Part shown: in pieces, positions 4,605-41,989 of the stretch | Numbering within the stretch: the stretch's first letter is position 1 | Layout: each line of letters starts with the position of its first letter | IMG/VR virus record: IMGVR_UViG_3300029448_000046 | Location: 1-56,343 of that record | Length of the DNA stretch: 56,343 nt | Reading direction: 5' to 3' (one strand) | Origin: a virus | Lineage: Duplodnaviria > Caudoviricetes | Made by a program: the position numbers and the translations under genes | Notes under the pieces: generated by a model | The model's input: the letters and a program-made list of their open reading frames with translations, nothing else | Databases searched by the model: none | Told to the model about the DNA's origin: nothing

Positions 4605-5728
4605 TGTGTGTAAGAAATTCAGAGCCTACTAATATGAGAATGGGTGGACCTTCTGACATTATGACAGTGGAGGAGTTTTACGGTGGACCTAGCGATAGCG
4701 ACAATAATCAAAGTGACAACAACACTAACACTAGTAACCAAAACGATATTCCAAACTATCAGTCTAGACCCCCAGCCGCTACTGACGACATGGGTAGCTA
4801 TGACGCAATTTATGGGCGAGGTGATGTCCCTGAAATAATGAACACCTTTGATGAAAGGAACAGGTCTGAATCTAGCCATCCAAATCACGTCCCAAACGCA
4901 CAGAGGGGAATACAAAACTATAACAGATTTATGGATAACAGAGTTAATTCTGTAGGTGCAAAAATTAGTAGGGGCATCAGGGGCATAGGGTCAATGGGGC
5001 CAATGAGCTTGTTTTTTGGTGGTGATAAAAGAAAAGAAGACTCAGTGTCTAGAAGCCAAGATTTGGTAAGTCAAATTATGAACTATAATGAAAGGGAACC
5101 GCAGTCTGTTTTACTAGGTGATGATGGACTTTCCTTTAAAATAACAACCCCTAACGGCGGCACTATCAACATTGGAAAGTCTGGTTTCTCATCGTACTCA
5201 GGTATGCCAGACCCTGACTACACTGGACCACTATCAAATTTAGTAAACCCGCCTGAACAAACAAATGAAGATAGTAACCCTGAAAGCACAAAAACTCCGC
5301 TAGACCCCTGCCCCGACGGTTTTGTGTTTAACAGTGAAACAAACTCCTGTGTTGAGGTTGAGTCTGACAGTGACACTATAGGTTCTTCATTTGTGAGAAA
5401 CACAGAACCCATGCCAACAGACCTTAGTCGATACGGTAGAGATAGCGGTGAGTATAGATTTTTTGATGAAATGCCGGGAATAATTAAAGCTAAAGATGGA
5501 ATACCGCGTGGAAGTCATGGTGAGGTTAAGGGGGTAGGTGGTCCTAAAGATGACCTCAACGGACCATTCATGCTTTCAACTAGTGAATATGTAATGCCAG
5601 CCGAGATGGTGCTGGATGAAGGTAACGGGAGTCACAAAAGAGGTATTGAAGCATTAGAAAAAAAACGCTTCGACGCACTAAGGAGATATCGTGACAGAGT
5701 TAAATCTGAGGAACGCGACAGAGCGTGA
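4604..5728 (+). CDS. putative internal virion protein
   Basis: TAATG coupling; CPDGFVFN..TNSC and G.V.G.GGPKDD...MLS..EYV.PA..V motifs seen in podovirus core proteins. Confidence 0.6.
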   Translation: MCVRNSEPTNMRMGGPSDIMTVEEFYGGPSDSDNNQSDNNTNTSNQNDIPNYQSRPPAATDDMGSYDAIYGRGDVPEIMNTFDERNRSESSHPNHVPNAQRGIQNYNRFMDNRVNSVGAKISRGIRGIGSMGPMSLFFGGDKRKEDSVSRSQDLVSQIMNYNEREPQSVLLGDDGLSFKITTPNGGTINIGKSGFSSYSGMPDPDYTGPLSNLVNPPEQTNEDSNPESTKTPLDPCPDGFVFNSETNSCVEVESDSDTIGSSFVRNTEPMPTDLSRYGRDSGEYRFFDEMPGIIKAKDGIPRGSHGEVKGVGGPKDDLNGPFMLSTSEYVMPAEMVLDEGNGSHKRGIEALEKKRFDALRRYRDRVKSEERDRA

Positions 5729-6152
5729 CGACCCGTTAATATTTAACCTATTGATAGACATGCACCAAGAAAGCGGCATGGGAAACCTCAACCCTGACAA
5801 GGTAAAAAAAGCAATCAGGCACTGTCGATTGCAAGGGTGTATAATAGTTGCAGATATTCAGGGAGTTCCAAAGGCTGTCTTGGGTTTGCGACCTGATAGG
5901 TTTTGGTGGTCTGACGATATAGCTCTCTTTGACCAGTTCACATACGTTGCACCAGAGGCACGCAAAACAAGGGCTATATTCCAAATGATTAATGCGGCGA
6001 AGAGGATGGCTATTGAAGCTGAGATACCTCTACTTATTGGTAATTTTGGCCCAGTCGATACGGAAACAAAATCAAGGCTTTATAAAAGAATGGGTAAAAG
6101 TCTTGGAACAACTGTAATAGCGGGAGACACAGGTAAGTTCTTGTGGAAATAA
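5691..6152 (+). CDS. GNAT-like acetyltransferase in the virion module
   Basis: 'LRNAT..D....F.LL..MH.E' start, 'YVAPEAR' motif A, 'RLYKRMG' motif B. Confidence 0.65.
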   Translation: MTELNLRNATERDDPLIFNLLIDMHQESGMGNLNPDKVKKAIRHCRLQGCIIVADIQGVPKAVLGLRPDRFWWSDDIALFDQFTYVAPEARKTRAIFQMINAAKRMAIEAEIPLLIGNFGPVDTETKSRLYKRMGKSLGTTVIAGDTGKFLWK

Positions 6153-15500: not shown

Positions 15501-17368
15501 AGGAAAAGATTGGTGACCTCTACCAAAATGTTTTTGCTAACACGCAAGCGATTGTTTCTGCTGGACTCAGAAACGTAGCAACTCAAAGAACTGTAAAACT
15601 TGTCGAGGATTTGGCCGCTGATGGATTCTATGACGAGGCAGTAAAGCCAAAAAGGATTTCAAAATCAGATGCTGTAAACAACAACAATCATTTCACACTG
15701 AGAGAAGATGGGAAGTCAGTGTATTTTGATGTTGGTTCTGACGCAGAACTCCTAACAGCAATGCGTACATTTACTCCTGTACAAATGCAGGGGTTCTTAA
15801 AAACCATGCAGAACATTGGGCGTTTTTTCCGTAACGCAATAACCATCACGCCAAGTTTTATGGAAGCGAACCTCATACGAGGTGACATGGCTGGAGTGGT
15901 GACAGTTGATGCACCTCTTAGACCAATGATTGACACAGTCATCGGTCTTAAAAACGCACTGACAGATGCAGACACAATATTAGAAATGAAAACAATTGGC
16001 GGCTTCGGCGGATACACATTTGGCGAAAGCTCTACAGATTTTGCTAAAAAAATGAAGCGTTTTTATCGGAGGCATGAAGGATACACTATTGTTGATACGC
16101 CACAGAAACTGACCGACATGTTTTTGAACTCGCTAGACAGGGTTAATAACCTTGGAGAAGCAACAGAGCTAGCGACAAGAGAAGCTATCTACAGACGTAT
16201 GACTGAGGCAGGTTCAGACAAAGGCGATGCGGCTTACGAAGCTCTTAACCTTATAAACTATTCGCGGCGTGGTAATCCCAACGGTGCGGCGTCACAAACC
16301 TTGGCTATGCTTTTGCCACTAGTTCCGTTCTTGAATGCAAGAATACAGGGTCTGTATAGAACCGGAACTGCGTTTAAAGGTGAGGCAAACGCCAAGCGAA
16401 CTGCACTTAAAGGTATGGCCTTGATGGGCTTGTCACTTGGATTGTATTCCCTGTCATCCAAAGAGGACGACTGGGACAAAGAGCCGTTACACAGAAAGCT
16501 AAATTATTACATCATATATTCTGATGATAAGAAGTTTTTAATACCAAAGCCATTTGAAATTGGGGCTATCTTCAGCACTATGCCAGAGGTCTTTTTGGAT
16601 GGCATCAGAAAGAAAGACGGCGAGTATGTTGCCGAGGCTGTGACACAGGTCTTCCTCAATAATCTTAGCTTCAATCCTATACCCCAAGCTATCAAACCAA
16701 TTATTGAAGTAGCAACTAACCAAGACTTTTTCAGAGGTCGTGAGATTGAAAGTCTTGGTGTCAGAGGTTTGCCCACTGAGATGCGGAGTTACAGTACAAC
16801 ATCTGAGTTCGCCAAAATGATTGGCAACATCACTGGGTCGCTTGGCATTAGTCCTATTGAAGCAGAAAAACTGATTTCAGGATACACTGGCTCAATGGGT
16901 AGCCTGTTTCTTGCTGGAACTGACTCAATACTTGGAATGACAGGGCAAGTTCCAACACGTCCAGCAGGTGTATTTGGCGACAGCATAACAGCCAAAGCGG
17001 CTGGTGCATTAGGCATAACTAGATTTGTTAAGGATAGGCCAGCCGACCCAAGCAACCAGTATCTTTCAGACTTCTACGAGTTGAAGAGAGAGGCCGATGA
17101 GGTTGTGCGCGGCATCAACCGCCTCCGCGAGGAAGGTAACTTTGAAGACGCAATGGAAATGCGGAAAGAGAACCGCAGTCTCATAGCTGTCAGGAAACAA
17201 TTGAATGTAAAATATCGGCAGTTAAATGAATTAAACGATAAAATACAGGGAGTGAAAAGAAGTGGTTCAACGCCCGAAGAAAAGAAAAGGCGGGTTGACC
17301 TATTGATAAAGAGACGTAACTCGATTGTTAGAGATATGTCTAGGCTAAAGGCCAGAATACGAGGATAA
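9509..17368 (+). CDS. large polyvalent internal virion protein with zincin HExxH and C-terminal LPD38-like domain
   Basis: 2619 aa; HEAFH; DYVPFYR; IPKPFEIG...KPIIEVATNQDFFRGREI...ISP..AEKLISGYTG. Confidence 0.8.
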   Translation: MPQMLFPDGRIYDTGNMSEQDIQTAYDNIQKRFAPVAPPEPEQGTLSRAGDLLELGTRNVAAKGARGIAQIADMSFDDRFDNAEDYLESFAQGQDNEASKIRGIKPLQEAEGIGDVFSSGASYLVQSIPEMAPIFVGMKAGAIAGSPFGPIGATVGAGIGLAIGASLPFLGENTEQFKKTQNRAPDKDEALNLLGTSIIQGGLNALIFKLIPFKGSPKITTNMIKKGLAGTGLEGSTEFAQELGTILAANNFDTSVLSDPDVVYRLKESLLAGGFVGGAIGVGTSPFTTEAAPPAPQVRRDAELEQAATDFKDGQPQPPAQPAQLTDETVVVPRLTSQESPEPDSRVEDVVTVRDGVPTAEQRIMTGQQEPFLVGQADATLDANEQAQQTNSEMVMQIAREALDAGLDPLEALGSAETTRRIEDALEGELEQDVALGQTPVAQEKQNLSRLKNKELIEWAEQNVNTDEIIGNIVKSQLSVTVKAQQIRKRLADLNVRSTTALEQGQQVGKPILRKDSDVDPEGRITRTTTEGTVSDVDPSGQARMGRRTDTAEGLRIRDEVGPVVTPALREALRMRGGEASIRTGDNQSTQDSSTTPVTSQTLKYEGALNYLTGRLQMLEKSGSQGKKLARAVKRQVMDDTSMNANDVVAGFLAADAVVNTLGGKGPKGGVELTFLKTLTNEKGNELHGEKSYSDNAKGRTQAVMRLALGSTDAQGNYVQDSAYRIAETANHEAFHFLQDFFVEHSPSDAKLLRSVYKLKDGKVNYKALPSTVRNLWKKYAPNQHQQALNGSLDIMSKPSEFQAMTYEFYQRAKSTGDASPLAGAFGKYFDFISGFLPRLANSVRGMGFQTVEDLYTRTSEGTTGRNLDGKTLTPRQSLTEESSRIDTKLSNDITKLLKEPDAEQSIRNDSKKYMSDVQIIDNDSDENIASITTINLKTVLKKSRPLNFNYFTEETQESVVVDFFERVFRGEIEFDPTGLQYDDFGETMETEFEYAKAGRRGSPREAAEYFVGQFDKGNYRVMRDAVTGLEVVSFSYPIENEQEPSVSYLLYPDGRLSPPHFDENSMTPYRLENELFNFFTPEFTSNKIAGLRSYAQKKDPYFLGFENEEQLKGRTDVWDIGFSVDGLYETTNESDARTALETFARATASFRVILDEIINRGLKVDAIIFAGTDSKKHSIYKSMVRNKGFMSLFPELGSAVDVRGPNRATVLPTKFQKPTQGELFSEESIRIDRVQDISNIALSQENDAVSNRFNLDEGMRRLSSIDILYNKTFNPELPEKDKAVGRDGKKRDAGRNIAEAARMLHNRALEILNEPITSSNPETDEMIARVMAAEIVAARENNPDTSAADWYTRSVDAAIAEVSKLYPEISSDPEHRSAFSLALAITSQGIVVDRNSKLGLGAYEFWRNNGRFPEFGEGKSSPAILKNFRNANVVMDVFKNSRVNVPFHEFLSQQFTVKELKQKLEDFGVKVGKGGVGLSGEGVNTEVYGSYMFGPKIGQGFYQNLTGNYDPITIDLWFMRSWGRMTGTLVGNENAFQNNLNDLRISMRNEGLEYDEELFGTDEQYTFDKISEANNIGEEFYTANKEAIDNKELQKSPMMKSAAAALVNGVKPIDTPRGGPQRKWIRSVVKRAQSILEGQGQSLTSADMQAILWYPEKDLYSKLTTGQQETRLNQSYEDAFKEIVNETGLRTLDGRGRGANDVRETIEAGDAKSRRSTPRTTSGKEESIRFSTADYRTTDGMKATLADPTVQGIAGKTYSFIRRFASQEGRKNLRESFVNEFVHGLAPLARRELELNYRETGDRRYKPFAQGAFKITELAQQMSGRMQMFNEIGAPKLNEDGSVGIVEGTQGLKKIFEPIGQGEKYAKFQMFVYAQRAQRLKSEGRENLMTDAQIAEGLQYGVENPEFQQVFNQYKSFNESVMQFLKDTGSVDEETKQRLIGTADYVPFYRIIEEEQYTEGLFGQVRRGNENAQNSTSAFDNPDARIKDVLRKLKGGEEKIGDLYQNVFANTQAIVSAGLRNVATQRTVKLVEDLAADGFYDEAVKPKRISKSDAVNNNNHFTLREDGKSVYFDVGSDAELLTAMRTFTPVQMQGFLKTMQNIGRFFRNAITITPSFMEANLIRGDMAGVVTVDAPLRPMIDTVIGLKNALTDADTILEMKTIGGFGGYTFGESSTDFAKKMKRFYRRHEGYTIVDTPQKLTDMFLNSLDRVNNLGEATELATREAIYRRMTEAGSDKGDAAYEALNLINYSRRGNPNGAASQTLAMLLPLVPFLNARIQGLYRTGTAFKGEANAKRTALKGMALMGLSLGLYSLSSKEDDWDKEPLHRKLNYYIIYSDDKKFLIPKPFEIGAIFSTMPEVFLDGIRKKDGEYVAEAVTQVFLNNLSFNPIPQAIKPIIEVATNQDFFRGREIESLGVRGLPTEMRSYSTTSEFAKMIGNITGSLGISPIEAEKLISGYTGSMGSLFLAGTDSILGMTGQVPTRPAGVFGDSITAKAAGALGITRFVKDRPADPSNQYLSDFYELKREADEVVRGINRLREEGNFEDAMEMRKENRSLIAVRKQLNVKYRQLNELNDKIQGVKRSGSTPEEKKRRVDLLIKRRNSIVRDMSRLKARIRG

Positions 17369-18879: not shown

Positions 18880-19050
18880 AGTTGTCCAAAAGTTGTCCAT
18901 ACGCTTGTAAGCTATTGATATTATTATATATGTTTGGCATCCCGTATGGGTGGTAAAATAATAAAAATCAATAGGTTAATGACTGTATGGACAACTTCTT
19001 TGTATCAGGTTGTGTCAGGTTGTGTCTAGTTGTTTCAACCTTGGACAAGT
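18880..19050. mobile_element. attP: putative attP site (tRNA 3'-end core, IHF sites, arm repeats)
   Basis: Minus-strand CCCATACGGGATGCCA at 18935-18950; WATCAANNNNTTR matches at 18908-18920 (-) and 18966-18978 (+); GTTGTCCA and GGTTGTGTC repeats; abuts the integrase 3' end. Confidence 0.75.
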
Positions 19051-20099
19051 AATTTGTTGTTTGTTTGAGATATAATGTTAGAGCCAACCTCACTTGACTT
19101 AGTCATAAACTCTGGCTGAAATCTCGCGTAATGATTTTGAGTTGTTGCAGTATTTGTGTGACCCAAATAGTTTGATATCTCCAAAATAGGTACACCATTC
19201 TTAGCCATCTGCACGGCACATGTGTGTCTCAAGCAGTGTGGATTAACATCTTTTAAGCCTGATTTTTTTACAGCCTTTTGAAAATGTGTATAGATTGTTT
19301 TGATTGGTTTGCCATCTTTCTCAACCAAAAAACCACTAGAGCTTTTGGACACAGCCTCTTTAAGTATCGGCTTTAGTGCGCTAGGCATTCTAATAATAGA
19401 GCGAGGCTTGTGCTTGCCCTCTATGCTGGGGTTGTTGAAGTTAATTATGTTGTCAGAAAAGTTGATGTTGGACTCAGTCAACTGAAGTATAGCTTCGCTT
19501 CGTGCGGCTGTCGCTAGAGCTATAGTTGTCCATACCTGCACAAACCATTCATCACAACTTTCCAAAAGAACTTTTATTTCTGAAAGCGTGAGGAACCTGT
19601 CCCTCACTCCAGACTTCACAAGTTTCATTTTGAAGGGGGTCCACTCAATCAACTCTTCTTCATGACAGAAATTAAGAGCCGCATTCAAAACGCCCAGTTC
19701 GCGTGAAGCTGACTGAGGTAAGACTGGTCTGCTTCTTATATAATTTCTAACATCCTGCTTACAGAAACTAGAAATTTTTCTGTTACCAAAATAGTTTGTC
19801 AGTTGTTTAACAATTGAATAGTGACGAGTCATATTTCGCTTAGTCGTTTTTCTGGATATAAGTTCTTTAGTATATTCCTGAAGAACTTCTGACAGAGTGC
19901 TAATTAAGTCTAAGTCAAACTCATCTGATTGTCCTGTAACCCAACCACTGAAGACCTGCTTTGCTTTCTCTTCATCCTCTTGGCCAGTAGAATACCTTCT
20001 TGGTACAACGACCCACTGTCCACCTCGGTGGACTTTTTCTGTCCAGTATATCTCCCAGTGTCTTCTGTCTCCGCGAGGCTCTTTAAGTTTGTATTCCAT
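19035..20099 (-). CDS. int: tyrosine integrase
   Basis: Catalytic R (AARSEA), HCLRH, LGH and Y (HYARF); probable start MEYKLK behind AGGAG. Confidence 0.92.
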   Translation of the reverse strand: MEYKLKEPRGDRRHWEIYWTEKVHRGGQWVVVPRRYSTGQEDEEKAKQVFSGWVTGQSDEFDLDLISTLSEVLQEYTKELISRKTTKRNMTRHYSIVKQLTNYFGNRKISSFCKQDVRNYIRSRPVLPQSASRELGVLNAALNFCHEEELIEWTPFKMKLVKSGVRDRFLTLSEIKVLLESCDEWFVQVWTTIALATAARSEAILQLTESNINFSDNIINFNNPSIEGKHKPRSIIRMPSALKPILKEAVSKSSSGFLVEKDGKPIKTIYTHFQKAVKKSGLKDVNPHCLRHTCAVQMAKNGVPILEISNYLGHTNTATTQNHYARFQPEFMTKSSEVGSNIISQTNNKLLVQG

Positions 20100-20257
20100 T
20101 TCATATCTCCTTCCTCTTGAGAAAGGATAGAAGATAACAGTATTCTTACAGACCGTCCACATTTTATAGACTTGATTGTATTATTCTTGACCATTCTTAC
20201 AACAGTTGAGCGAGATACTTGCAGAATATCTTGTGTTTGTCTCACTGTAACGTACAT
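19910..20257 (-). CDS. xis: excisionase (HTH_17-like)
   Basis: YVTVRQTQDILQVSRSTVVRMVKNNTIKSIKCGRSVRI winged HTH directly upstream of int. Confidence 0.8.
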   Translation of the reverse strand: MYVTVRQTQDILQVSRSTVVRMVKNNTIKSIKCGRSVRILLSSILSQEEGDMKWNTNLKSLAETEDTGRYTGQKKSTEVDSGSLYQEGILLAKRMKRKQSRSSVVGLQDNQMSLT

Positions 20258-23169: not shown

Positions 23170-23841
23170 TCAGAAATCTGCACTTAATCTAATTAGCTTA
23201 CCTTCTACTGTAAATTCTTCTTGAGACAACTCTTCAACATCTTTCATCAAAACATCCTTGGCGACTAGGAATTTTTCAGAGCCAAGCTTCCTGTCTAGCC
23301 ACCTATAGTAATTTCTACCTGAAGATTGAATTGCGTATATACTTTTCTTTTTAAACTCAGTCTTCTCCCACCACGCAAAAACATTTACACCAATAAGCGC
23401 ATCGCACTCTGTGTCCATTACACGGCTAATCCAATCAACATTAATATATTTTGTAAAATCCTTATATAAAACAATATGATTTTGGGGATTTTTAGTTTCA
23501 TGATAGTGAGCTTGTACAGCACCCTCGTTGTGGTCATAAACTCCAACCTCAGTATATTTATCAGGTACAAAAATTGATGGTGTCGGTGAGGCACATTCAG
23601 ATAAACCAAAGAGATAGTTTAAATTAACATTAAATTTCTCAGCTATATCACGCAGTAGTAAAAGGTCTGGATGAGTCGGTCCTGCTATAACATGGTTAAA
23701 TGTTCTAGCATCCATGCCAAGCATGTCTGCCGCCTTGGATTGCGTAAGGTCTCTCTCAATTAAAAGCTTACGCAGTGCCTCTCTAAAAGGCGCGTAATCT
23801 CGTTTAACTCTAGTTACTTTTGTAGGTTTTAATCTGGCCAT
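23170..23841 (-). CDS. XRE-family HTH repressor (CI-like)
   Basis: LRKLL.ERDLTQSKAADMLGMD..TF...IAEKFNVNLNYLFG; S24-like C-terminal layout ending VEGKLI. Confidence 0.75.
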   Translation of the reverse strand: MARLKPTKVTRVKRDYAPFREALRKLLIERDLTQSKAADMLGMDARTFNHVIAGPTHPDLLLLRDIAEKFNVNLNYLFGLSECASPTPSIFVPDKYTEVGVYDHNEGAVQAHYHETKNPQNHIVLYKDFTKYINVDWISRVMDTECDALIGVNVFAWWEKTEFKKKSIYAIQSSGRNYYRWLDRKLGSEKFLVAKDVLMKDVEELSQEEFTVEGKLIRLSADF

Positions 23842-24343: not shown

Positions 24344-24641
24344 TGCTTGTAACTTAGGTCGTTCACTCAATCCCAGTTGGCCAGAATGGAAACATGAAAA
24401 GGTTAGATGCGAAGCAACAGATTGGTTGCTTGGTGATAGCCAAGACTTTGCCGAAGTTTGCGAAGCCGCTGACATACAGAAAGAATATATAGCCAAGTTC
24501 GCCTTGAGAATATCCAAAGGTGACAACAAGGCAAAACAATTACTAATTGAATGGCGAGATACATTCGCTAAACAAGGAAGGAAGATAAAGAATGGCGTGG
24601 AAGTCGAACTCGAACCCGATGTTTCGGACGAAATTTTCTGA
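24276..24641 (+). CDS. hypothetical protein
   Basis: MWRATILQALLDA...A.DWL...DF.EVCE.A pattern of conserved phage proteins. Confidence 0.65.
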   Translation: MSGASLEGIKRMWRATILQALLDACNLGRSLNPSWPEWKHEKVRCEATDWLLGDSQDFAEVCEAADIQKEYIAKFALRISKGDNKAKQLLIEWRDTFAKQGRKIKNGVEVELEPDVSDEIF

Positions 24642-26271
24642 AGATATTTTTAATAATAAGTACGCACATGAAGATGCAACAACATGGGCTGAGTTGTCAC
24701 GAACTTTGGTTGAGGATGTTTGTCGCGACTACATGCCTCAAGATGAGAAAGATGAACTTGTTGACCATCTCACAAACTTGAGATGGGTGGCAGGTGGCCG
24801 CTATCTTTATTATGCAGGTCGTAAGCGTAAGTTCTTTAACAACTGCTTTCTTTTACGCGCACAAGAAGATACCCGTGAGGACTGGGCTAACCTAAGTTGG
24901 AAGGCGGAAAGCTGTCTTATGACTGGCGGTGGAATAGGTATTGACTACTCAGTATACAGACCTGAAGGCTCGGCCCTCGGTGGAACTGGTGGAACTGCAT
25001 CTGGTTCTGTAACTAAGATGAAGATGATTAATGAAATCGGAAGGTCTGTAATGCAAGGCGGCTCACGTAGGTCTGCAATATATGCAAGCCTAAACTGGAA
25101 GCATGGAGACATAAATAGCTTTCTGGATGCCAAGAACTGGCACGAAATGCCAGTGGGTAAATCTGGCTACACACTGTATGATGCAAAGCAGGATGACTTT
25201 AACTTCCCTGCCCCACTCGACATGACAAATATCTCTGTCAATTATGACACAGAGTGGTTGATGAATTACTGGCAAACTGGTGATGTCGGAGATGTGTTTA
25301 GAAAGAATTGTAAACAAGCATTGAGCAGTGCAGAGCCAGGATTTTCCTTTAATTTTTTTGATAAAGAAAACGAAACTCTTCGCAACGCATGTACAGAAGT
25401 GACCAGCTCCGACTCAGATGACTTATGTAATCTTGCCAGCCTGAACTTCGCTCGTATTGATAGCTTAGACCAACTTCAATCACTGGTTTATCTGGTAACA
25501 AAGTTTCTTGTTTGTGGGACGATGGTTGCAGAACTCCCTTACGATGAAATTTATAGAACCCGTGAGAAAAATAGGCGTCTTGGTTTAGGGTTGATGGGTC
25601 TGCATGAATGGCTTATTGCACGTGGAAGTAAGTATGAAGTGACTGACGAACTTCATCGTTGGCTAAGAGTTTACAAGAGTGTGTCAGATGATACAGCAGA
25701 CAAGTTCTGTGATGAGTTATCTATTAGCCGCTCAGTAGCCAAACGTGCAGTCGCACCAACGGGAACGATAGGTATTATTGCTGGAACAACAACAGGAGTT
25801 GAGCCAATCTTTGCTGTCTCATATAAGCGCAGGTACTTAAAAGGAAGCAAGTGGCACTATCAATATGTGGTTGATGCGGCGGCTCAAGAAATGATTGATG
25901 TGTATGGAGCTGACCCGAATAAAATTGAATCGGCCATTGACCTAGCTGGTGACTACGAGCGAAGGATGAAGTTCCAGTTCGATGTCCAGTCTTACGTTGA
26001 CATGAGTATCTCAAGTACAATCAACCTACCTAGCTGGGGCAGTGAACTCAACAATGAGGATACCGCTGAAAAGTTTACTCAAACACTAGCTAAGTATGCT
26101 CATGGTCTGCGTGGTTTTACCGCTTACCCCGATGGCTGTCGAGGTGGTCAACCGCTTACATCAGTCGCGTATGCAGAGGCTGTAGAAAAACTTGGAACAG
26201 AGTTTGAGGAAGCTGTTGAGACACATGACATATGTGAAATCACTGCACACGGCGGTTCTTGTGGAGTGTAA
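24592..26271 (+). CDS. nrdJ: class II (adenosylcobalamin-dependent) ribonucleotide reductase
   Basis: NNCF, RNACTE, CNLAS, GLGLMGL, APTGTI and C-terminal C......SCG; no beta-subunit gene in the window. Confidence 0.88.
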   Translation: MAWKSNSNPMFRTKFSEDIFNNKYAHEDATTWAELSRTLVEDVCRDYMPQDEKDELVDHLTNLRWVAGGRYLYYAGRKRKFFNNCFLLRAQEDTREDWANLSWKAESCLMTGGGIGIDYSVYRPEGSALGGTGGTASGSVTKMKMINEIGRSVMQGGSRRSAIYASLNWKHGDINSFLDAKNWHEMPVGKSGYTLYDAKQDDFNFPAPLDMTNISVNYDTEWLMNYWQTGDVGDVFRKNCKQALSSAEPGFSFNFFDKENETLRNACTEVTSSDSDDLCNLASLNFARIDSLDQLQSLVYLVTKFLVCGTMVAELPYDEIYRTREKNRRLGLGLMGLHEWLIARGSKYEVTDELHRWLRVYKSVSDDTADKFCDELSISRSVAKRAVAPTGTIGIIAGTTTGVEPIFAVSYKRRYLKGSKWHYQYVVDAAAQEMIDVYGADPNKIESAIDLAGDYERRMKFQFDVQSYVDMSISSTINLPSWGSELNNEDTAEKFTQTLAKYAHGLRGFTAYPDGCRGGQPLTSVAYAEAVEKLGTEFEEAVETHDICEITAHGGSCGV

Positions 26272-26307
26272 CAGTCTAAAATTATTTATCTAACCTCTAA
26301 AATATGG

Positions 26308-26336
26308 TTGCAATAACTTATTTGTCTCATTAAAAA
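26308..26336 (+). promoter_or_regulatory. putative promoter of the replication genes
   Basis: TTGCAA-N17-TAAAAA, 6 nt before the ATG. Confidence 0.4.
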
Positions 26337-26342
26337 GAAATT

Positions 26343-27026
26343 ATGCGTGATGTAGGTTATATTAAAATGCATAGAGGATGGATGAAAAACCCTGTCTTCC
26401 GCTCATGTGAAGAGCGAGTTCTTTGGGTCACCATAATTGAGCGAGCCGCTTGGAAGGATACAAGTACAACAGTCAATGGTTGTATTGTGTCTGTACCTCG
26501 CGGCTCTTTTATTTGCTCAATGCGTACCATCTCTGATGTCCAAGTCTGGGATGCAAAGAGGGTGAGTCGCTTCCTAAACAGGTTAAAAAAGTGCCACATG
26601 ATTGACACAGAAACTGTCCAAGGACTGACACAGATAACAGTCTGTAATTATGAGAAATATAATCAACAGCCGCACACAAGTGACACAGATAGTGTCCAAG
26701 CAGTGACACATAAAGAAAGAATAAATAATAAAAAAGAAAATATAATACATGGATGGGATGAGTTTCACGCCGTCTACCCAAAGGGCAAGCATGACAACGG
26801 CAACCCCAGACGTTGGCCAAAGTCAGGCCGTGATAGTGCGATGAATGTTTTTAAGGCAACGAGCAAGAACACTTCAGTCGAACTCTTAATCAAAGCGGCA
26901 GGTAATTACGCACAAGTAAAGAGCGATGGGCTGTATGTTCTGAACCCAAAAAAGTTTTTATCACAAGATTACTGGAAGGATTTCTTGGAAGTGAAAAAGA
27001 AAATAGACAATTGGAATTACCAATGA
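26343..27026 (+). CDS. phage replication initiator / replisome organiser
   Basis: GYIKMHR, V.V.RGSF..S, ITVCNYEKY, F...YPK motifs; internal repeats. Confidence 0.8.
   Translation: MRDVGYIKMHRGWMKNPVFRSCEERVLWVTIIERAAWKDTSTTVNGCIVSVPRGSFICSMRTISDVQVWDAKRVSRFLNRLKKCHMIDTETVQGLTQITVCNYEKYNQQPHTSDTDSVQAVTHKERINNKKENIIHGWDEFHAVYPKGKHDNGNPRRWPKSGRDSAMNVFKATSKNTSVELLIKAAGNYAQVKSDGLYVLNPKKFLSQDYWKDFLEVKKKIDNWNYQ
26603..26747 (+). repeat. iteron array plus AT-rich tract (putative ori)
   Basis: TGACACA(G/T)A at 26603, 26626, 26681 and 26704, then an A-rich tract at 26711-26747. Confidence 0.7.
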
Positions 27027-27343
27027 CTGGTGTTGACGGGTTTCTAGACAGGAACAAGGCGTTTGGTACTGAGTTAGAGACAGTTTTAGGAAACACGTTT
27101 GGCGGGTGGCGTAGATGCAGGTGTCCGAAGTGTTCAGACAGTAGGAAAAACAAAGCGGACAGGTGTCTTGCAGTAAGGCATCCTGAAGAAGGAGATGTAT
27201 ATGTTATCTGCCACAATTGCGGCTGGCGGTCAGGATTTAATGGGGCTGACGGAAGAGGCTACAGCGTATCTAGAAACCAGAAGTCTGGACGCAGAGACAG
27301 TTTTAAATCTGGGGGTTTTCGCCTCAAAACACCATTCCTCTGA
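27023..27343 (+). CDS. stand-alone primase zinc-binding domain
   Basis: CPKCS.SRK.K.DRCLAV...CHNCGW.SG; ATGA overlap with the initiator stop. Confidence 0.7.
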   Translation: MTGVDGFLDRNKAFGTELETVLGNTFGGWRRCRCPKCSDSRKNKADRCLAVRHPEEGDVYVICHNCGWRSGFNGADGRGYSVSRNQKSGRRDSFKSGGFRLKTPFL

Positions 27344-28697
27344 GGTTATTGCTTTCCCTTATTTTAAAGATGGGAAGGTTGTTAATCATAAGTATCGCAA
27401 CTACAAGGCCACGGGCAACCAACCTAAATGGTTTCAAGACAAGGCTGGTCAGAAGATTGTGTTCAATCGGGCCGCTCTTGAGGATGAAACTCTTGCGTCT
27501 GAACCAGTTATTATTACCGAAGGTGAGTGGGACTGCTGTGTTTCTGTTCAGTGTGGTTTTGTTCGCTCCATATCTGTGCCAGATGGTGCGCCACAGAAAT
27601 CTATAGATGTTGAGCGCGATGGTATTTCAAACAAGTATAGTTATGTTCAGGATTTGCTACCTCTTCTAGAGAACTGCAAGGAAATAATCATAGCAACAGA
27701 CGGTGATACAAATGGTCAGGTTCTAAGGGATGACCTAGCGATACGACTTGGTAAGGCAAGGTGTAAGTTTGTTAATTATCCCAGAGACTGTAAGGATTTG
27801 AATGACGCTCTTGTAAAGTACGGCACTAAGGGTGTGACTGAAACTATAGCTCGCGCAAAATGGTTTCAGGTGGACGCTGTCTATAGCTTCTCTGACCTTC
27901 CACCCTTAGATGACAAGCCTGTTTACGAACTTAACATGCATTCATTTGATTATCATTTTAAGATAAGGAAGGGCGACTTCTCTGTCGTCACGGGCGTACC
28001 CTCTTCAGGTAAATCAACATTCCTTAATCATATGATGTGCAAGATGGCAAAGCATCACAACATGAGAGTGTGCTTCGCATCCTTTGAACAGATGCCCCAG
28101 ACTGACCACCTTCGAGCCTTACGCAAGTGGTACTTTGAATGTTATCTGAATCGTCCGGTCAGAAGAAACTGGGCAAATGAGGATGAAGCACTCAAGACAC
28201 AATGCAGTGATTGGATTGACCATCACTTCCGCGTTATACACCCAAGCTGGGAAGATACTGTTGATTTAAATTGGCTTGTGGAAAAGATGCAAGCGGCTGT
28301 CATACAAGAGAGTTGTGACATAATAGTCATCGACCCATTCAACGAGATGGAACACAACACATATGGTGAGAGCATGACCCTGTACATTGGGGCTTTCATT
28401 AAGACGTTAAAAAGATTTGCGGCAAAGTATAACGTGCATGTGTGTGTGGTTGCTCACCCTCGCAAGGTCAGCAAGGACAAGGATGGTAATATAGAGATAC
28501 CCACGCTCTACGACATAGAGCAGTCAGCCATGTGGTATAACAAGGCCGACCTTGGTTTGATTGTTCACCGTGAAAATGGAGTAACACGGGCGCGTGTAGC
28601 TAAGTCACGTTACGAAGATATGATTGGTAAAAGGGGTGAGGTTTTATTCACATTCAATGAGGAGACGGCACATTTCTACGAGTACGAAGAGGTCTAA
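27240..28697 (+). CDS. Twinkle/T7 gp4-like primase-helicase (TOPRIM + SF4 helicase)
   Basis: ITEGEWD, SVPDGA, ATDGD, KDLND, Walker A GVPSSGKS, IDP, VAHPRK. Confidence 0.9.
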   Translation: MGLTEEATAYLETRSLDAETVLNLGVFASKHHSSEVIAFPYFKDGKVVNHKYRNYKATGNQPKWFQDKAGQKIVFNRAALEDETLASEPVIITEGEWDCCVSVQCGFVRSISVPDGAPQKSIDVERDGISNKYSYVQDLLPLLENCKEIIIATDGDTNGQVLRDDLAIRLGKARCKFVNYPRDCKDLNDALVKYGTKGVTETIARAKWFQVDAVYSFSDLPPLDDKPVYELNMHSFDYHFKIRKGDFSVVTGVPSSGKSTFLNHMMCKMAKHHNMRVCFASFEQMPQTDHLRALRKWYFECYLNRPVRRNWANEDEALKTQCSDWIDHHFRVIHPSWEDTVDLNWLVEKMQAAVIQESCDIIVIDPFNEMEHNTYGESMTLYIGAFIKTLKRFAAKYNVHVCVVAHPRKVSKDKDGNIEIPTLYDIEQSAMWYNKADLGLIVHRENGVTRARVAKSRYEDMIGKRGEVLFTFNEETAHFYEYEEV

Positions 28698-29656: not shown

Positions 29657-29807
29657 TTTTAATCTCCACTAACTCAGCTTCTCCATAGAGAATGCATTCG
29701 TTGCAAGCACCAGCATCTTTTGCTCCTAGAACTTCAACATTAAGTTCGCACTCCTCACAACCATCGACAGGTTTGTAACCAACATTTGTTTTACTTATCT
29801 TTTCCAT
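29649..29807 (-). CDS. small CxxC-CxxC protein (not in ORF track)
   Basis: Hand translation MEKISKTNVGYKPVDGCEECELNVEVLGAKDAGACNECILYGEAELVEIKND*; fills the gap and overlaps both neighbours. Confidence 0.5.
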   Translation of the reverse strand: MEKISKTNVGYKPVDGCEECELNVEVLGAKDAGACNECILYGEAELVEIKND

Positions 29808-29992
29808 ACATCCATCCCCCTATAACAAAAATGCTCTAAGCCTTTTCGTTGTTCATCACTACTAAAAACTTCATCATCTGAGCCAGCAATACCCTCTTGC
29901 ATCACCCATTCAAACCACTGAACTTGTTGTTTGGGTACGTAGACTGTCATGCCACCGTTCTTTAAATAAACCTGTGTTAATGTTTTAACCAT
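29795..29992 (-). CDS. hypothetical protein
   Basis: TAATG coupling, SD GGAGG. Confidence 0.55.
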   Translation of the reverse strand: MVKTLTQVYLKNGGMTVYVPKQQVQWFEWVMQEGIAGSDDEVFSSDEQRKGLEHFCYRGMDVWKR

Positions 29993-30186
29993 TACTTAAC
30001 CTCCCTGTAAACACCACCGATTGTGTTGTCATCTTCATCTTTCATTGAAGTTTCGCCTTGGCCAATGACTTCATCAGCATCAAAGTTGTAGCGGTCTGCA
30101 AGCTGACGAAGTTCTCGCCTCCCATGAATAGAGGTACGTCCACCACCATCTTGAAACCACATAGTGAACCATTCTTTTCTAGACAT
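29992..30186 (-). CDS. hypothetical protein
   Basis: Start MSRKEW behind GGAGGAG. Confidence 0.55.
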   Translation of the reverse strand: MSRKEWFTMWFQDGGGRTSIHGRRELRQLADRYNFDADEVIGQGETSMKDEDDNTIGGVYREVK

Positions 30187-30352
30187 CACCAATCTCCTCC
30201 ACTGTAATCTCTGCGTCATAGTCACCATCATACTCTTTCCAATGGTCACAGTCTAATTTCCTCGCAAGACAGGCCGCTTGGTCAGCATCAGTAGCCTCAA
30301 CAGTGGCAACGCTGGACACTGAATAGCTTCGGGTTATTTCATATTTTGGCAT
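30179..30352 (-). CDS. small protein (not in ORF track)
   Basis: Hand translation MPKYEITRSYSVSSVATVEATDADQAACLARKLDCDHWKEYDGDYDAEITVEEIGDV*; SD CAGGAG. Confidence 0.6.
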   Translation of the reverse strand: MPKYEITRSYSVSSVATVEATDADQAACLARKLDCDHWKEYDGDYDAEITVEEIGDV

Positions 30353-30521
30353 CACTATTCTCCTGTGAACTAGTTATTATGAATAGTTTGTATCCTGCGA
30401 GTTTCCCCAGGAACACAAACCCAAAAGAAAAGGCGACTACTTGAGCCGCCCTCTCTTTAAATCTTTGAGCGCACACACCGCGCAGTAAAGAATCCCACCG
30501 TAATAGACAAAGCCTAAGTCA

Positions 30522-36461: not shown

Positions 36462-36627
36462 ATCCCTTCCTTTCGATTAACCATTTTTCCAATTTACTTA
36501 ATGTTGAATAAGCAAACAAAAGCGCACTGATAAACACACATACAGTCAATGCGCCTTCATCATTTAAATTAACTAAAATCATAAACAATACGCTGGTCAG
36601 CGCACCTTCTTTGATAATTTCAAACAT
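36442..36627 (-). CDS. small membrane protein
   Basis: Two hydrophobic segments, each preceded by EGALT. Confidence 0.5.
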   Translation of the reverse strand: MFEIIKEGALTSVLFMILVNLNDEGALTVCVFISALLFAYSTLSKLEKWLIERKGYANYKR

Positions 36628-36641
36628 GATATTTCCTTTCT

Positions 36642-37019
36642 CTATGCGGCCACGTTGCAGTTCCAGTTTTCAATTCCATCAAGTTCTTCCAATCTAAAAA
36701 CATCGTCGGAACGGATGTAATATTTGAACCCGTTTTTTACGATGACAGGCCAGAAATTGTGTTGTGAAAATCTATAGTTCCTGCCAAGTAACTCTAGGAT
36801 TGAATTTAATCTGTCACGGGTTGTTCGCGTGTTGTATCCGCAAAGTGACATAGTGATGTCCATGCCGCCGCCGCGACGGGCGATTAAATTGCCATGCAAA
36901 AACATTCTGTAAATGTTGTTTTCTTCTGTTTTGTATTCGACTTTTACAACAGTGTTTACAGAACAGCTTTTGTAGCCTTCACAAAACGCGAGAGCCATTT
37001 TTTCTGATAAATTTCTCAT
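36642..37019 (-). CDS. hypothetical early protein
   Basis: Start MRNLS behind AAAGGA; LHGNLIA...G..TRTTRDRLN...Q.NF motif of conserved phage proteins. Confidence 0.65.
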   Translation of the reverse strand: MRNLSEKMALAFCEGYKSCSVNTVVKVEYKTEENNIYRMFLHGNLIARRGGGMDITMSLCGYNTRTTRDRLNSILELLGRNYRFSQHNFWPVIVKNGFKYYIRSDDVFRLEELDGIENWNCNVAA

Positions 37020-37029
37020 TTTGAAAGTT

Positions 37030-37895
37030 CCTTTTTCAAGTTCCGAAGCGGTGATGTGTTCACCGCCTAGGCAGTCCACCAGACTAGCTAGGCAGTGACA
37101 GGACAATGTTGCCCTGCCACCTGAAACTTTTTACTTTCCACCTGACATCCCTGTCATGCGCCGCACTGGCAACGAATGATAGAACTGTCAGGGCTGATGC
37201 AGTCCGGCAAACCGTGTCACTTGTTCCACGGATGCGGGAAGCTTGGTGAAATAGGGCATTCAGCAAAGCCCGCCGCCGAAGCGACAACCTGTCATGGTCA
37301 GTGGCAAGGGGGGCGAAGCCCAATTCAAATTCCAAACGTACAACCTCTTATTGCACGTCCAACATCAAAGCCCGTTTTGGGGGTCTCGACTGCATAGCAT
37401 CCTGTTTGTGGGGTATGGTAGCCCTGCCCATTTTCGGGGGTCTTAATCAGTATTGAAAGCGTTCTATGTGGGGGTTGATTACCCTGCCAAGTTGGGGGTC
37501 TGTGAAGGGTAACTGAAAGGTTCGGTATGTAGAAGTCCTACACCTGACAGTCGCCGGACAATTGACCGTTTCCAACGGGTCTAACGCACACCTGATAATG
37601 TACCGTTTCCGGTGGGTCTAATGCACAATCAGCGCGATTAACCAGTTCCAAGGGGTCTGGATGATGTTGCTTGCGTATAGCGTGTTAGTCTTTTTAACGA
37701 TGAGAAAAAGCGAACCGAAGCACCACAATGCCATCCGGTGGAGTATCGGGGGGCTGGAATTGACCGCCAGTGCAGTCATTAGGCCAGCCCTGTCCGACTG
37801 CCTTCCGGTCAGCAGGGTGATGGGTCACGGGTTGTAAGTCCGTGTCGGTATGAACAATAAGAAAAAGCGCACCACAATAGAGAGTGGCAATAGTC
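37030..37895. ncRNA. candidate large structured RNA / leader
   Basis: No credible CDS; many hairpins, long-range complementary segments and repeated GGGTCT units; strand unresolved. Confidence 0.45.
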
Positions 37896-37901
37896 CAGTC
37901 T

Positions 37902-37930
37902 AATATATGTTGTACAATCTCTGAAACAAG
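37902..37930 (-). promoter_or_regulatory. putative leftward early promoter
   Basis: CTTGTT-N17-TATATT on the minus strand. Confidence 0.35.
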
Positions 37931-38038
37931 TAGTCAGGTCAAATAAGTTTTGGACAAAGGACAAGCCTTGTCCAAGGCGTGGAAATGTCGGTGCTTAACT
38001 GTAGGGGGGTGGTACAATAGCTAAGAGAGGTCAAAGAT

Positions 38039-38524
38039 ATGGCAAGTAAGAAACACACAACACAGTCGGGACTGACAGATAAACAGGAAACCTTTTGTCA
38101 GGCTTATACGGTAGGTGACCAAAAGGGCAACGCATCTGCGAGTTACAGAACCGCCTACGCTTGTGACCGGATGAAACCCGCCAGCATTCGAGCGGAAGCA
38201 TGTCGGCTGTTGGATAACCCTAACGTTTCCCAACGCATAAACGCTCTAAACACCCAAATAGCGCATCAGAACCGCTTGCAACGGGTCTCGCTAAGACAGA
38301 AAGTCACAGAGGGACTGTTACTAGAAGCATCAGCGGCTGAAAGCCCTGCGGCACGGGTCAGGGCGTGGGAATTGATTGGGAAACTCGACGGCGTCGATGC
38401 CTTCGGTGCTGAAAAGGTCGAGACAACTACTACTGTTTCGAGCCAACAGGCCGAAACTGAACTGCAACAGGCTGTTGCGGCGGCCTTGCAGGATGACAGT
38501 GTTGTCCAGCTCTTCAGTAAGTAA
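38039..38524 (+). CDS. terS: terminase small subunit
   Basis: LTDKQETFCQAY....NAS.SYR.AY.......EACRLL.NP.V..RI; A.ELIGK. Confidence 0.85.
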   Translation: MASKKHTTQSGLTDKQETFCQAYTVGDQKGNASASYRTAYACDRMKPASIRAEACRLLDNPNVSQRINALNTQIAHQNRLQRVSLRQKVTEGLLLEASAAESPAARVRAWELIGKLDGVDAFGAEKVETTTTVSSQQAETELQQAVAAALQDDSVVQLFSK

Positions 38525-40477: not shown

Positions 40478-41989
40478 ATGGAAGCGTCTGCTCAAGAACT
40501 CCTCAAAAATCTAGACAAGCTACCGCCTGAACATTACGAGGCGGTAACTGTTGCGCTTGCAAAATGGCATGAGGCTAAAAGAATAGATAAGTCTAAGGAC
40601 AGCTTCCTAGACTTTGTTAAGGTTGTGTGGCCAGCATTTATCGAAGGTCCACACCATAGAATAATGGCTGAGAAGTTTCAAAAGGTAGCCAGCGGCGAGT
40701 TGAAGCGTATCATCATCAATATCGCTCCTCGACACGGTAAGTCTGAACTTACCTCTTGGCTACTACCAGCTTGGATGCTTGGGAAAGACCCTAGTAAGAA
40801 AATCATTGCCGCAACGCACACGGCAGATTTCTCTGTAAGGTTTGGTCGAAAGGTTCGTAACCTCATCGACTCCGAGTCATTCAAGGGGGTATTCCCAAAC
40901 ATCTCTCTCAGGGCTGACTCAAAGGCCGCTGGTAGATGGGATGTTTCAGGCGGCGGAGAATACTTCGCTGTCGGTGTTGGCGGTGCAATGACTGGGCGTG
41001 GTGCAGACCTGCTTATCATTGACGACCCTCACTCAGAGACTGCTGGTATTAGTCCGTCTCTTGATTACTTTGATGGTGTTTATGAATGGTATGCATCTGG
41101 TCCGAGACAGCGTCTCCAGCCGGGCGGTGCAATCATAATCGTCATGACCCGCTGGCATCAGTTAGACCTGACGGGTCAGATACTCCAGTCATCAGAAGAC
41201 AGGAAGGGTTCCGACAAATGGGAAGTGATTGAGCTTCCTGCTATGTACGAAAACGGCGAACCTCTTTGGCCAGACTTCTGGAGCAAGGAGGAGCTAGACG
41301 CTCTGAAGGCGGAGCTTCCCATTTCAAAGTGGGAGGCCCAGTACCAGCAACAGCCCACCTCTGAAGAGGGTGCGCTTATCAAGAGAGAGTACTGGAGAGA
41401 GTGGCGAGCCGATAACCCACCCCAATGTGATTACATAATTCAGTCAGTAGATACAGCGCATACCAAGAACGCGAGGTCTGACTACTCCGCAATAACAACA
41501 TGGGGTGTATTCCAACATCCAAATGATGACGGACAAGTTACAGCCAACATCATTCTTCTCGACGCAGTTAACGAAAAACTTGAGTTCCCTGAATTAAAGA
41601 ACAGGGCTTTGGAGCTTTATTATTCTTATGAACCAGACGGATATCTTATTGAAGCAAAGGCGGCGGGTTTACCGCTTATACAAGAACTGCGAGCGAGCGG
41701 TATTCCTGTCATGGATTACACTCCGAGTCGCGGCCAAGATAAATTATCGCGGGTTAATGCTATCACTGACATCTTTGCTAACGGCATTGTTTGGTATCCT
41801 AAAACACGATGGGCTGAAGAAGTGGTTGAGCAATGCGCGTCGTTCCCTCAAGGAGCGCATGATGACCTTGTTGACTGCACGACCTTGGCGTTGATGCGTT
41901 TTAGACAAGGCGGGTTTATCAGTCTTGATAATGATTACGGCGATGAGAGTGACGAGTGGTTACCTCGGCGCAAAGAGCCTTACTACTAG
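40478..41989 (+). CDS. terL: terminase large subunit
   Basis: PRHGKSE, G.GADLLIIDDP, MTRWH..DL, YQQ.P, DTA, FP.GAHDDLVD. Confidence 0.95.
   Translation: MEASAQELLKNLDKLPPEHYEAVTVALAKWHEAKRIDKSKDSFLDFVKVVWPAFIEGPHHRIMAEKFQKVASGELKRIIINIAPRHGKSELTSWLLPAWMLGKDPSKKIIAATHTADFSVRFGRKVRNLIDSESFKGVFPNISLRADSKAAGRWDVSGGGEYFAVGVGGAMTGRGADLLIIDDPHSETAGISPSLDYFDGVYEWYASGPRQRLQPGGAIIIVMTRWHQLDLTGQILQSSEDRKGSDKWEVIELPAMYENGEPLWPDFWSKEELDALKAELPISKWEAQYQQQPTSEEGALIKREYWREWRADNPPQCDYIIQSVDTAHTKNARSDYSAITTWGVFQHPNDDGQVTANIILLDAVNEKLEFPELKNRALELYYSYEPDGYLIEAKAAGLPLIQELRASGIPVMDYTPSRGQDKLSRVNAITDIFANGIVWYPKTRWAEEVVEQCASFPQGAHDDLVDCTTLALMRFRQGGFISLDNDYGDESDEWLPRRKEPYY

Follow-up and report, generated by a model that had tools for sequence, protein, structure and literature searches.

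A large structured RNA of about 850 nucleotides ahead of the accessory-gene operon of a temperate tailed phage

What occupies the longest gene-free interval of a temperate tailed phage genome, and on which strand does it act? The stretch of DNA analysed here (the window) is the full viral record IMGVR_UViG_3300029448_000046, 56,343 nt long and with an estimated completeness of 91%. The interval in question is the gap between divergent start codons at 37020-38038, which separates terS and the late genes on its right from an accessory-gene operon on its left. A preliminary description, made from the letters alone, had suggested that this interval encodes a large structured phage RNA. Our comparison with relatives bears this out: the region carries a fold of about 850 nt, composed of several domains and maintained by compensatory changes, with a central ladder of repeats, a pseudoknot and a covarying loop-loop complementarity. 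We file the RNA as a new class, with the caveats that the family is small, independent compensatory events are few and the support for its transcription is weak.

The interval is non-coding. The longest part of the window with no open reading frame of at least 90 amino acids is 37107-38038 (932 nt), followed by 29657-30436 (780 nt), so that the gap does form the largest gene-free stretch of the genome, as had been noted. None of the ten internal reading frames of 40-83 amino acids is kept intact across six relatives, in which they show stops, partial coverage and an amino-acid identity below the nucleotide identity. Its base composition also sets it apart: its GC fraction is 0.475-0.545, whereas the left flank has 0.33-0.45 and the right flank 0.42-0.455, again as first described. 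No known RNA family was recognised from the letters, and the database searches agree: Rfam 15, whose families include GOLLD, ROOL, OLE, HEARO, introns, ribozymes and riboswitches, gave six matches at E <= 10 over 36500-38500, none of which lies in 37020-38038 and all of which, at 14-20 bits, fall far short of threshold; the whole window gave none at gathering thresholds, and positions 4700-5900 of a relative (L102; L numbers are our locus handles) gave only five noise matches at E <= 10. A blastn search of 36900-38100 against 50,697 phage records found no match, Tandem Repeats Finder found no array, ARAGORN found neither tRNA genes nor a tmRNA in the 56,343-nt window, and full-text searching of the literature found no description of this RNA.

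Relatives were gathered through terL, through the gene to the left of the stretch and through two invariant words scanned over the viral collection, and carriers of the element were identified by running blastn and nhmmer over 424 loci. The terL search gave 80 loci, of which only L005, L007, L008, L010 and L011 carry the element; protein searches with terS or with the left gene gave only two and one loci, respectively. The whole element is present in 11 further records (L004, L105, L007, L102, L100, L318, L008, L010, L085, L115 and L396; L107, L099, L091 and L094 are repeat fetches of four of these), and L011, L370 and a truncated L005 have the 5' and 3' parts in common with them and a different, shorter centre. 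Among the matches listed, a 15-mer scan gave no member in at least 117 metagenome-contig stretches and a single one (L318) in at least 120 genome-contig stretches, and a covariance model of the 5' domain (R1) found no further member in 79 other sources comprising 692,819 bases. The family is narrow, with at least 15 records in about six lineages; all such counts are lower bounds. The terS identity of the carriers is 70-87%. One carrier, L318 (genome_contigs record PBGS01000050.1), is a short contig of 17.6 kb that was binned with a metagenome-assembled genome bearing the label Methanobacteriota archaeon; judging from the bacterial-type ribosome-binding sites, the sigma-70-like promoter and the nearest isolates, a binning artefact is more likely than an archaeal host.

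The fold was derived from a 10-sequence alignment of the minus strand (A3), and an alignment of 11 sequences with 10 distinct rows (A5) was used for the central domain; L085, identical to L010 over the last 900 nt, was excluded from the alignments, and L005 was used for the 5' domain only. The RNAalifold consensus of A3 contains 189 pairs, in which 96.8% of the cells are standard pairs, compared with 84.6 +/- 0.5% when the partners were shuffled and 39-46% when they were slid by one to three columns. Double changes were seen in 76 pairs, against 43.7 +/- 3.4 in the shuffled controls and 16-22 in the slid ones, and not one of 500 shuffles reached the observed value on any of five measures. When the structure was transferred to L396, which had been kept out of its derivation, 148 of 164 scorable pairs formed. 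Window coordinates of the helices (Table 1) were transferred from the A3 alignment columns.

The consensus accounts for six of the eight stems named in the preliminary description. Those at 37049-37065, 37066-37092, 37212-37231 (CCGTG/CACGG) and 37827-37843, together with the long stem, now placed at 37737-37806, are compensated in relatives; the stem at 37311-37321 is kept in the window and in L004, compensated in L105 and L007, and replaced by an insertion in the others. The two remaining stems gave way to other helices: in place of the proposed pairing of TGACAGG at 37096 with CCTGTCA at 37150, covariation supports hairpins 37094-37121 and 37141-37192, and in place of GCGG...CCGC at 37234-37273 it supports 37254-37271 and 37199-37242.

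The strand had been left open, with G-U pairs thought to favour the plus strand. All lines point instead to the minus strand, namely folding z scores, consensus energy, the balance of G.U over A.C, UUCG loops and a leftward promoter pair. Comparison with dinucleotide shuffles, which had been suggested for both strands, gave a better-than-shuffled energy for the minus strand (z = -2.82, none of 60 shuffles as low) and not for the plus strand (z = -0.27, 24 of 60 as low); a smaller set of 20 shuffles gave -2.65 and 0.00, respectively. The RNAalifold consensus energy is -191.4 kcal/mol on the minus and -170.2 kcal/mol on the plus strand, a difference of 21 kcal/mol, and among the 136 pairs that the two strands have in common, G.U accounts for 34 cells on the minus strand and A.C for 11. 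Many hairpins are capped by UUCG with a C-G closing pair: in the 13 aligned sequences the minus strand has 41 copies of CUUCGG and the plus strand one, the corresponding numbers for UUCG being 81 and 18.

The core of the RNA is a ladder enclosed by a long-range helix, which pairs 37669-37653 with 37373-37360, joins bases 300 nt apart and is found in five complementary versions among the lineages. Six direct repeats make up two complementary sets, three 38-nt units on the 5' side and three 57-nt units on the 3' side. The AGACCC of the 38-nt units (37658-37653, 37619-37614 and 37582-37577) has its pairing partners in the 57-nt units (37501-37496, 37443-37438 and 37386-37381) in nested order, and the lineage-specific covariation fits the same nested, intramolecular arrangement, r6 with r1, r5 with r2 and r4 with r3. 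Each rung consists of a GACCC:GGGC helix, a 4-bp helix that varies in step and a GGUC:GACC helix, with A-rich asymmetric loops between them. The 4-bp helix occurs as UUGG:CCAA, CUGG:CCAG and CCGG:CCGG, and as CGGG:CCCG in L004, read by eye from the alignment. The middle rung, whose register shifts by one column between lineages, was left out of the counts; by eye, it too covaries (ACGGG:CCCGU in L102, GUCGG:CCGAC in L396). In A5, the 76 pairs of the central domain are 96.3% paired, against 85.2% when shuffled and 34-52% when slid, and 28 of them are double-changed against 17.4 in shuffles. We know of no other RNA with a ladder core built from two complementary sets of three repeats. A local hairpin within each 38-nt unit is possible, but it is not the covarying alternative.

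Repeats of this kind could also act as DNA. They might be terminase (pac/cos) repeats, iterons or operators beside terS, with the hairpins being incidental, and several observations would fit: the six direct repeats end in GGGTCT immediately upstream of terS, the window has 11 copies of GGGGTCT where 4.0 are expected, four of them in this stretch, and an 8-mer recurs in inverted orientation 600 bp away. However, the variable bases of the repeats covary with distant partners, with G.U (34 cells) favoured over A.C (11), the folding z scores and UUCG loops are strand-asymmetric, and the repeat spacings of 37, 39, about 80, 57 and 58 nt are out of helical phase. We regard a DNA-level element as highly improbable. 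Iterons as such were dropped as a candidate because changes at inner bases of the GGGTCT repeats are compensated in the distant partner repeat. A CRISPR-like array or solitary repeat units were likewise rejected: no array was found, and the stretches between the repeats are conserved across lineages and belong to covarying helices.

The complementarity of the two repeat sets within one leader also invites comparison with P4 CI RNA and P1 c4 RNA, which are RNA-based immunity systems. On that model the leader would serve in attenuation, a processed piece pairing with repeats in the nascent leader and stopping transcription into the operon. The phage is temperate, having an integrase and a repressor-like gene (Table 1), and near the 5' end hairpins are followed by short U-runs, both of which would fit such a system. 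Yet the covariation fits a strictly nested intramolecular order, the repeats are enclosed in a domain with its own closing helix, and the U-runs are short and interrupted, so that we consider an immunity leader quite unlikely.

The central domain is also the part that changes hands. L011, L370 and L005 exchange the centre as a block and keep the 5' and 3' domains, from which we conclude that the RNA evolves by module swapping of its central domain. Read by eye, the shorter centre of these records (L011:2977-3213, L370:931-1187 and L005) has a single outer AGACCC rung, topped by an apex unlike that of the others. The parts of L370 do not all resemble the same lineage.

On either side of the ladder, the 5' and 3' domains appear to be tied together. 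The apical loop of the long 5' hairpin, at 37766-37773 (GCACUGGC), is complementary to the apical loop at 37163-37170 (GCCAGUGC) of hairpin 37141-37192 in the 3' domain, and the two would form kissing loops linking the domains across 600 nt. In L004 the stem of the long 5' hairpin is wholly different in sequence and its pairing is retained. The loop complementarity is found in the versions CACUGG:CCAGUG, CUCUGG:CCAGAG and CUAUGG:CCAUAG; seven of the eight pairs hold in all 13 sequences, with 95.2% paired versus 23-39% when slid, and two positions switch in step (A-U in eight sequences and U-A in five; C-G in 12 and A-U in one). We consider the kissing contact well supported but not proven, because with two variable positions its pair-count measures do not rise above shuffles. 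The inverted 8-mer was also considered as transposon-like ends, for which the kissing loops are the better explanation. Within the 3' domain, the pseudoknot listed in Table 1 is retained through two compensatory versions, in L010/L115 and in L396.

The RNA appears to be made as the 5' leader of the leftward operon. A minus-strand promoter candidate had been pointed out upstream, and its sequence is indeed present, with a comparable -35/-10 pair at the same alignment position in five of the six lineages; its claim to be a promoter is weakened by a match at only 8 of 12 positions and by its not being flagged in a consensus scan. Transcription would start at about 37895, giving some 847 nt to the last hairpin (37049) and 876 nt to the AUG at 37019, which is where the first leftward gene had been said to begin. 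Between the last hairpin and the next gene no U-tract terminator was found in any lineage, and in every lineage the last hairpin is succeeded, 20-30 nt further on, by a ribosome-binding site and a start codon. With no terminator before the next gene, the RNA is therefore made as a 5' leader, in agreement with the position ahead of the operon proposed earlier. The label of an early operon did not survive: the operon comprises accessory genes, and the replication genes lie elsewhere, on the plus strand. Two U-runs were considered as intrinsic terminators and rejected, as they are interrupted and lie 4-6 nt from their hairpins, and hairpin 37335-37359 was flagged as terminator-like, but its tail is not U-rich. 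The downstream gene differs among lineages and is mostly unannotated (a PHROG search of 10 downstream proteins from relatives gave a family for one only), and the RNA is conserved independently of it.

A search of sequencing runs returned three weak holders, with shares of 0.04-0.10 of the sampled words, each yielding one contig (168, 219 and 256 nt). All three contigs fall inside 37101-37574, and none lies in the searched 420 nt of the left gene or in terS; parts of the stretch that have no contig cover say nothing about expression. One run comes from a transcriptomic library made with oligo-dT and bears the label marine metagenome; the other two are labelled RNA-Seq and may hold DNA. These contigs give a hint of expression, no more.

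The leader position has to be set against the possibility that the RNA is a free-standing, ornate non-coding RNA that acts in trans as GOLLD and ROOL may do, being processed to a particle, a multimer or a protein sponge while the downstream genes ride on read-through. Its size, pseudoknot and long-range loop-loop pairing are typical of compact folded RNAs, it is kept while the gene behind it changes, its central domain is swapped as a module, and the short contigs from RNA libraries lie on the RNA and not on the flanking genes. Against this, neither a terminator nor a defined 3' end can be seen, and within 30 nt there is in all cases a gene preceded by a ribosome-binding site. GOLLD and ROOL are often found near tRNA islands, unlike this RNA, whose window contains no tRNA genes. 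The RNA also differs from both in having no match to their Rfam models, in being a 5' leader directly before a gene and in its very narrow distribution of at least 15 records. In size, phage origin and ornateness they are the nearest known RNAs: the accessible text of one report describes GOLLD and ROOL as phage-encoded RNAs of several hundred to more than 800 nt, with an elaborate fold supported by covariation, a pseudoknot and loop-loop pairing, and with no known protein partner or function (PMC12286853), and the same text has ornate phage RNAs homo-oligomerising via kissing loops. The kissing-loop complementarity of the present RNA could act inside a single molecule or join two molecules. 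We hold the free-standing RNA to be possible, though not probable.

How a transcript of this length might be produced is suggested by two conserved single-stranded motifs. We looked for a 12-nt motif near the boxA of Escherichia coli (UGCUCUUUAACA) or Bacillus subtilis (AUGAUCUUUGAAA), neither of which may be the boxA of the host. The core of the first motif, CGCU.UUU, is present in 13 of 13 aligned sequences and in every lineage begins 2-5 nt past the terminal hairpin P1. Its place towards the 5' end of a long untranslated transcript, directly behind a small hairpin, is what would be expected of a boxA. The second lies 157-158 nt after the first, and both copies are just 3' of a hairpin; it reads (C/G)GCU.UUU in 11 of 13 sequences and CCCUGUUU in L010 and L115. 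In the version CGCUAUUUGACA (L102, L008, L011, L396 and L370) the first copy agrees at 9 of 12 positions with the E. coli consensus, possibly not that of the host, which the available part of PMC13753749 gives as UGCUCUUUAACA; there, the boxA of B. subtilis is described as immediately preceded by a small 5' hairpin. Compared with the gammaproteobacterial consensus GYTCTTTAANA (as quoted in the accessible portion of PMC5725501), which may not be that of the host either, the motif matches at eight of the ten specified positions.

The arrangement recalls that of known boxA/Nus leaders (rRNA, lambdoid nut and suhB). There, too, a U-rich single-stranded motif follows a small hairpin near the 5' end, a second copy precedes the next large structured domain and long-range stems enclose a structured RNA. 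Ribosomal RNA (rRNA) operons have a leader boxA and a spacer boxA. The present motif differs in that its position 5 is never C and its tail is GACA or CUYA, and the RNA behind it is not ribosomal. The conserved motifs may be boxA, an identification that we hold tentatively and at clearly less than even confidence; an antitermination component of the boxA/Nus type is plausible.

The same layout may extend beyond the family as it can be aligned. In L012, whose terL is 79% identical and whose AT-rich leader of about 1 kb is otherwise unalignable, the model with filters off matches the boxA-like motif only, and a pattern search finds two copies of it on the same strand at similar spacing. A 7-mer between these copies has its exact complement about 150 nt before the gene start, which is the kissing-loop layout in another sequence version; we put the probability of meeting such a complement by chance within 1 kb at roughly 0.06. 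In L013 (terL 74% identical) two related motif copies can be seen by eye. On the minus strand, L012:2794-3790 and L013:1848-2663 are gene-free leaders of about 0.8-1 kb upstream of terS, each with two motif copies. The RNA class may thus be wider than sequence searches show.

A cis-acting antitermination or processing leader, functionally like HK022 put, was the first option proposed; taken as a rival reading, it would be a polymerase-binding antiterminator RNA that acts without Nus factors. HK022 put consists of two adjacent hairpins, about 70 nt in total, which lie just downstream of the promoter and are sufficient in cis. Like put, the present RNA would be a cis-acting structured RNA at the start of a phage operon; in our case structured RNA begins within about 10 nt of the predicted start, its hairpins do follow a promoter candidate, and a long untranslated leader needs protection from termination. 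The conserved unit here, however, spans some 850 nt, which makes it more than ten times as large as put, and it has three domains, long-range helices, a pseudoknot and kissing loops, far beyond what such a role would require; the Rfam searches gave no similarity to a curated family. The comparison with put is not supported, and a put-like or other polymerase-binding antiterminator appears to us very unlikely.

We propose instead that the structured minus-strand RNA of about 850 nt is transcribed as the 5' leader of the accessory operon, is protected through boxA and Nus factors, and yields a scaffold RNA, a reading that we judge evenly poised between right and wrong. An untranslated, C-rich transcript of 850 nt is a natural target of Rho, and in rRNA operons Nus factors both protect the transcript and help distant partners to pair. 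By analogy, the two boxA-like motifs would recruit host NusB/NusE and other Nus factors to the polymerase, and this loading would keep Rho from ending the long, C-rich, untranslated transcript. With the 5' strand held near the polymerase, partners 300-600 nt apart could then pair. The folded RNA would be a functional scaffold, whose three quasi-symmetric rungs might dock a dimeric protein or other copies of the RNA, and it may be freed from the mRNA by a cut in the long-range stem, where RNase III could plausibly act and release the centre. A fuller version, in which a new giant ornate phage RNA is made like rRNA, with Nus loading, chaperoned pairing, a compact or self-assembling particle, docking rungs and excision from the leader, seems doubtful to us.

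Several points weigh against this proposal. The family is narrow, and in about six lineages compensatory events are few and not independent; in addition, the consensus structure was derived from the alignment that was used to score it. L115, which has lost 25 nt of the 5' domain upstream of motif 2, evidently persists. For the kissing loops, the pair counts and the two variable positions have been mentioned above, and their complementarity can equally be read as two inverted copies of a protein-binding DNA site. The promoter, at 8 of 12 positions, is weak and was missed by the scan, and the contigs from sequencing runs show neither strand nor RNA ends, two of the three runs being possibly DNA. 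The likeness to boxA is partial: none of the 13 sequences has the consensus C at position 5, which is occupied by A, G or U, the second copy is deviant in L010 and L115, and the copies in the window are poorer, the first (CGCUUUUUCUUA) agreeing at 7 of 12 E. coli positions as that consensus is given in the available part of its source.

Compared with earlier surveys, the RNA stands out by its length. The structured-RNA survey of IMG/VR (the DNAVirus_N set) comprises, in the accessible part of its report, 8,495 motifs of 29-151 nt (PMC10690425). These were mined by covariation from the same kind of viral contigs; judged by the motif lengths reported there, the set has no unit of about 850 nt, and single hairpins of this RNA may be among its motifs. 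The features of the RNA and of its surroundings are collected in Table 1.

Table 1. Positions of RNA elements and of neighbouring and selected genes in the window
Feature	Position	Strand	Details
Integrase	19035-20162	minus	
Repressor-like gene	23170-23841	minus	
Ribonucleotide reductase, DnaD-like loader, primase-helicase	24592-28697	plus	
First gene of the leftward operon	36642..37019	minus	125 amino acids; Kyano_Gp96 / phrog_554; outside the conserved RNA
3' domain	37049..37301	minus	described as a six-hairpin domain with a pseudoknot; helices 28-36
3'-domain hairpins	37272-37285 (UUCG loop), 37254-37271, 37199-37242, 37141-37192, 37094-37121, 37066-37092, 37049-37065	minus	
Pseudoknot	37260-37264 with 37193-37197	minus	versions GCUGA:UCAGC, GCCGC:GCGGC, GCCGA:UCGGC
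Conserved A/U-rich linker	37320-37334	minus	after hairpin 37335-37359
Hairpin after central domain	37335..37359	minus	helix 26; 6 of 8 pairs double-changed
Central domain	37360..37669	minus	310 nt; three-rung ladder within long-range closing helix
boxA-like motif 2	37700..37712	minus	GCU-N-UUUCUCAU; directly ahead of central domain
Long three-part hairpin	37737..37806	minus	70 nt; 24 pairs, 12 double-changed (helices 4-6)
Hairpin P2	37827..37843	minus	3 of 4 pairs double-changed, 100% of cells paired; loop UUCG/UCCG in several relatives
boxA-like motif 1	37857..37869	minus	single-stranded in the fold; CGCU-N-UUU then GACA or CUYA; 3' of P1
5'-terminal small hairpin P1	37872..37887	minus	A3 columns 197-200 with 223-226; 2 of 4 pairs double-changed
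Sigma-70-like promoter candidate	37902..37929	minus	-35 TTGTTT 37929-37924, 16-nt spacer, -10 TATATT 37907-37902
terS	38039-38524		right of the gene-free stretch
terL	40478-41989		right of terS

The deletion in L115 (L115:2525-2661) is seen in comparison with its near-twin L010 as the absence of about 25 nt of the 5' domain, just upstream of boxA-like motif 2. Between the divergent promoters lies a near-perfect palindrome (GGACAAG C CTTGTCC, 37950-37975), preceded by a GGACAA direct repeat. The scan flagged it as resembling a minus-strand terminator; it might be an operator or might terminate transcription in both directions, and relatives have another hairpin in its place. At the terS side, the sister-group contigs L002 and L003, which are unrelated, both begin within terS (query residues 75-78), where a packaging end may lie in that group.

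Behind the leader, the leftward operon encodes a Kyano_Gp96-like protein, two small unknowns, a 299-amino-acid unknown, an AAA ATPase, a DUF2201 metallopeptidase/VWA protein and Sir2. The second-longest stretch with no reading frame of at least 90 amino acids (29657-30436, 780 nt) lies at this operon's far end and gave no Rfam match at gathering thresholds. The structural module includes a single reading frame of 2,619 amino acids at 9509-17368. By terL, the closest named isolates share 52-57% identity and comprise two Pelagibacter phages, one phage from seawater and one from a lake, the last with a gammaproteobacterial host; the annotated regions of the nearest, 023Pt_psg01 and DSL-LC04, have a different organisation and are uninformative.

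Ribosomes, introns and RNase P aside, very few natural RNAs longer than 500 nt are known to have elaborate conserved folds. The phage RNAs GOLLD and ROOL form RNA-only cages whose purpose is still unknown, and a large RNA that is unrelated to them is a fresh object of study, which would join the very small number of giant ornate RNAs known from phages. With its clear domain borders, repeat-built ladder, pseudoknot and covarying contact across 600 nt it is tractable for structural work, and the module swap of the central domain among relatives provides natural variants for comparison. If the boxA reading is true, this would be a phage case of the Nus-assisted production of a long, non-ribosomal structured RNA, and would offer a test of how distant parts of an RNA come to pair while it is being transcribed.

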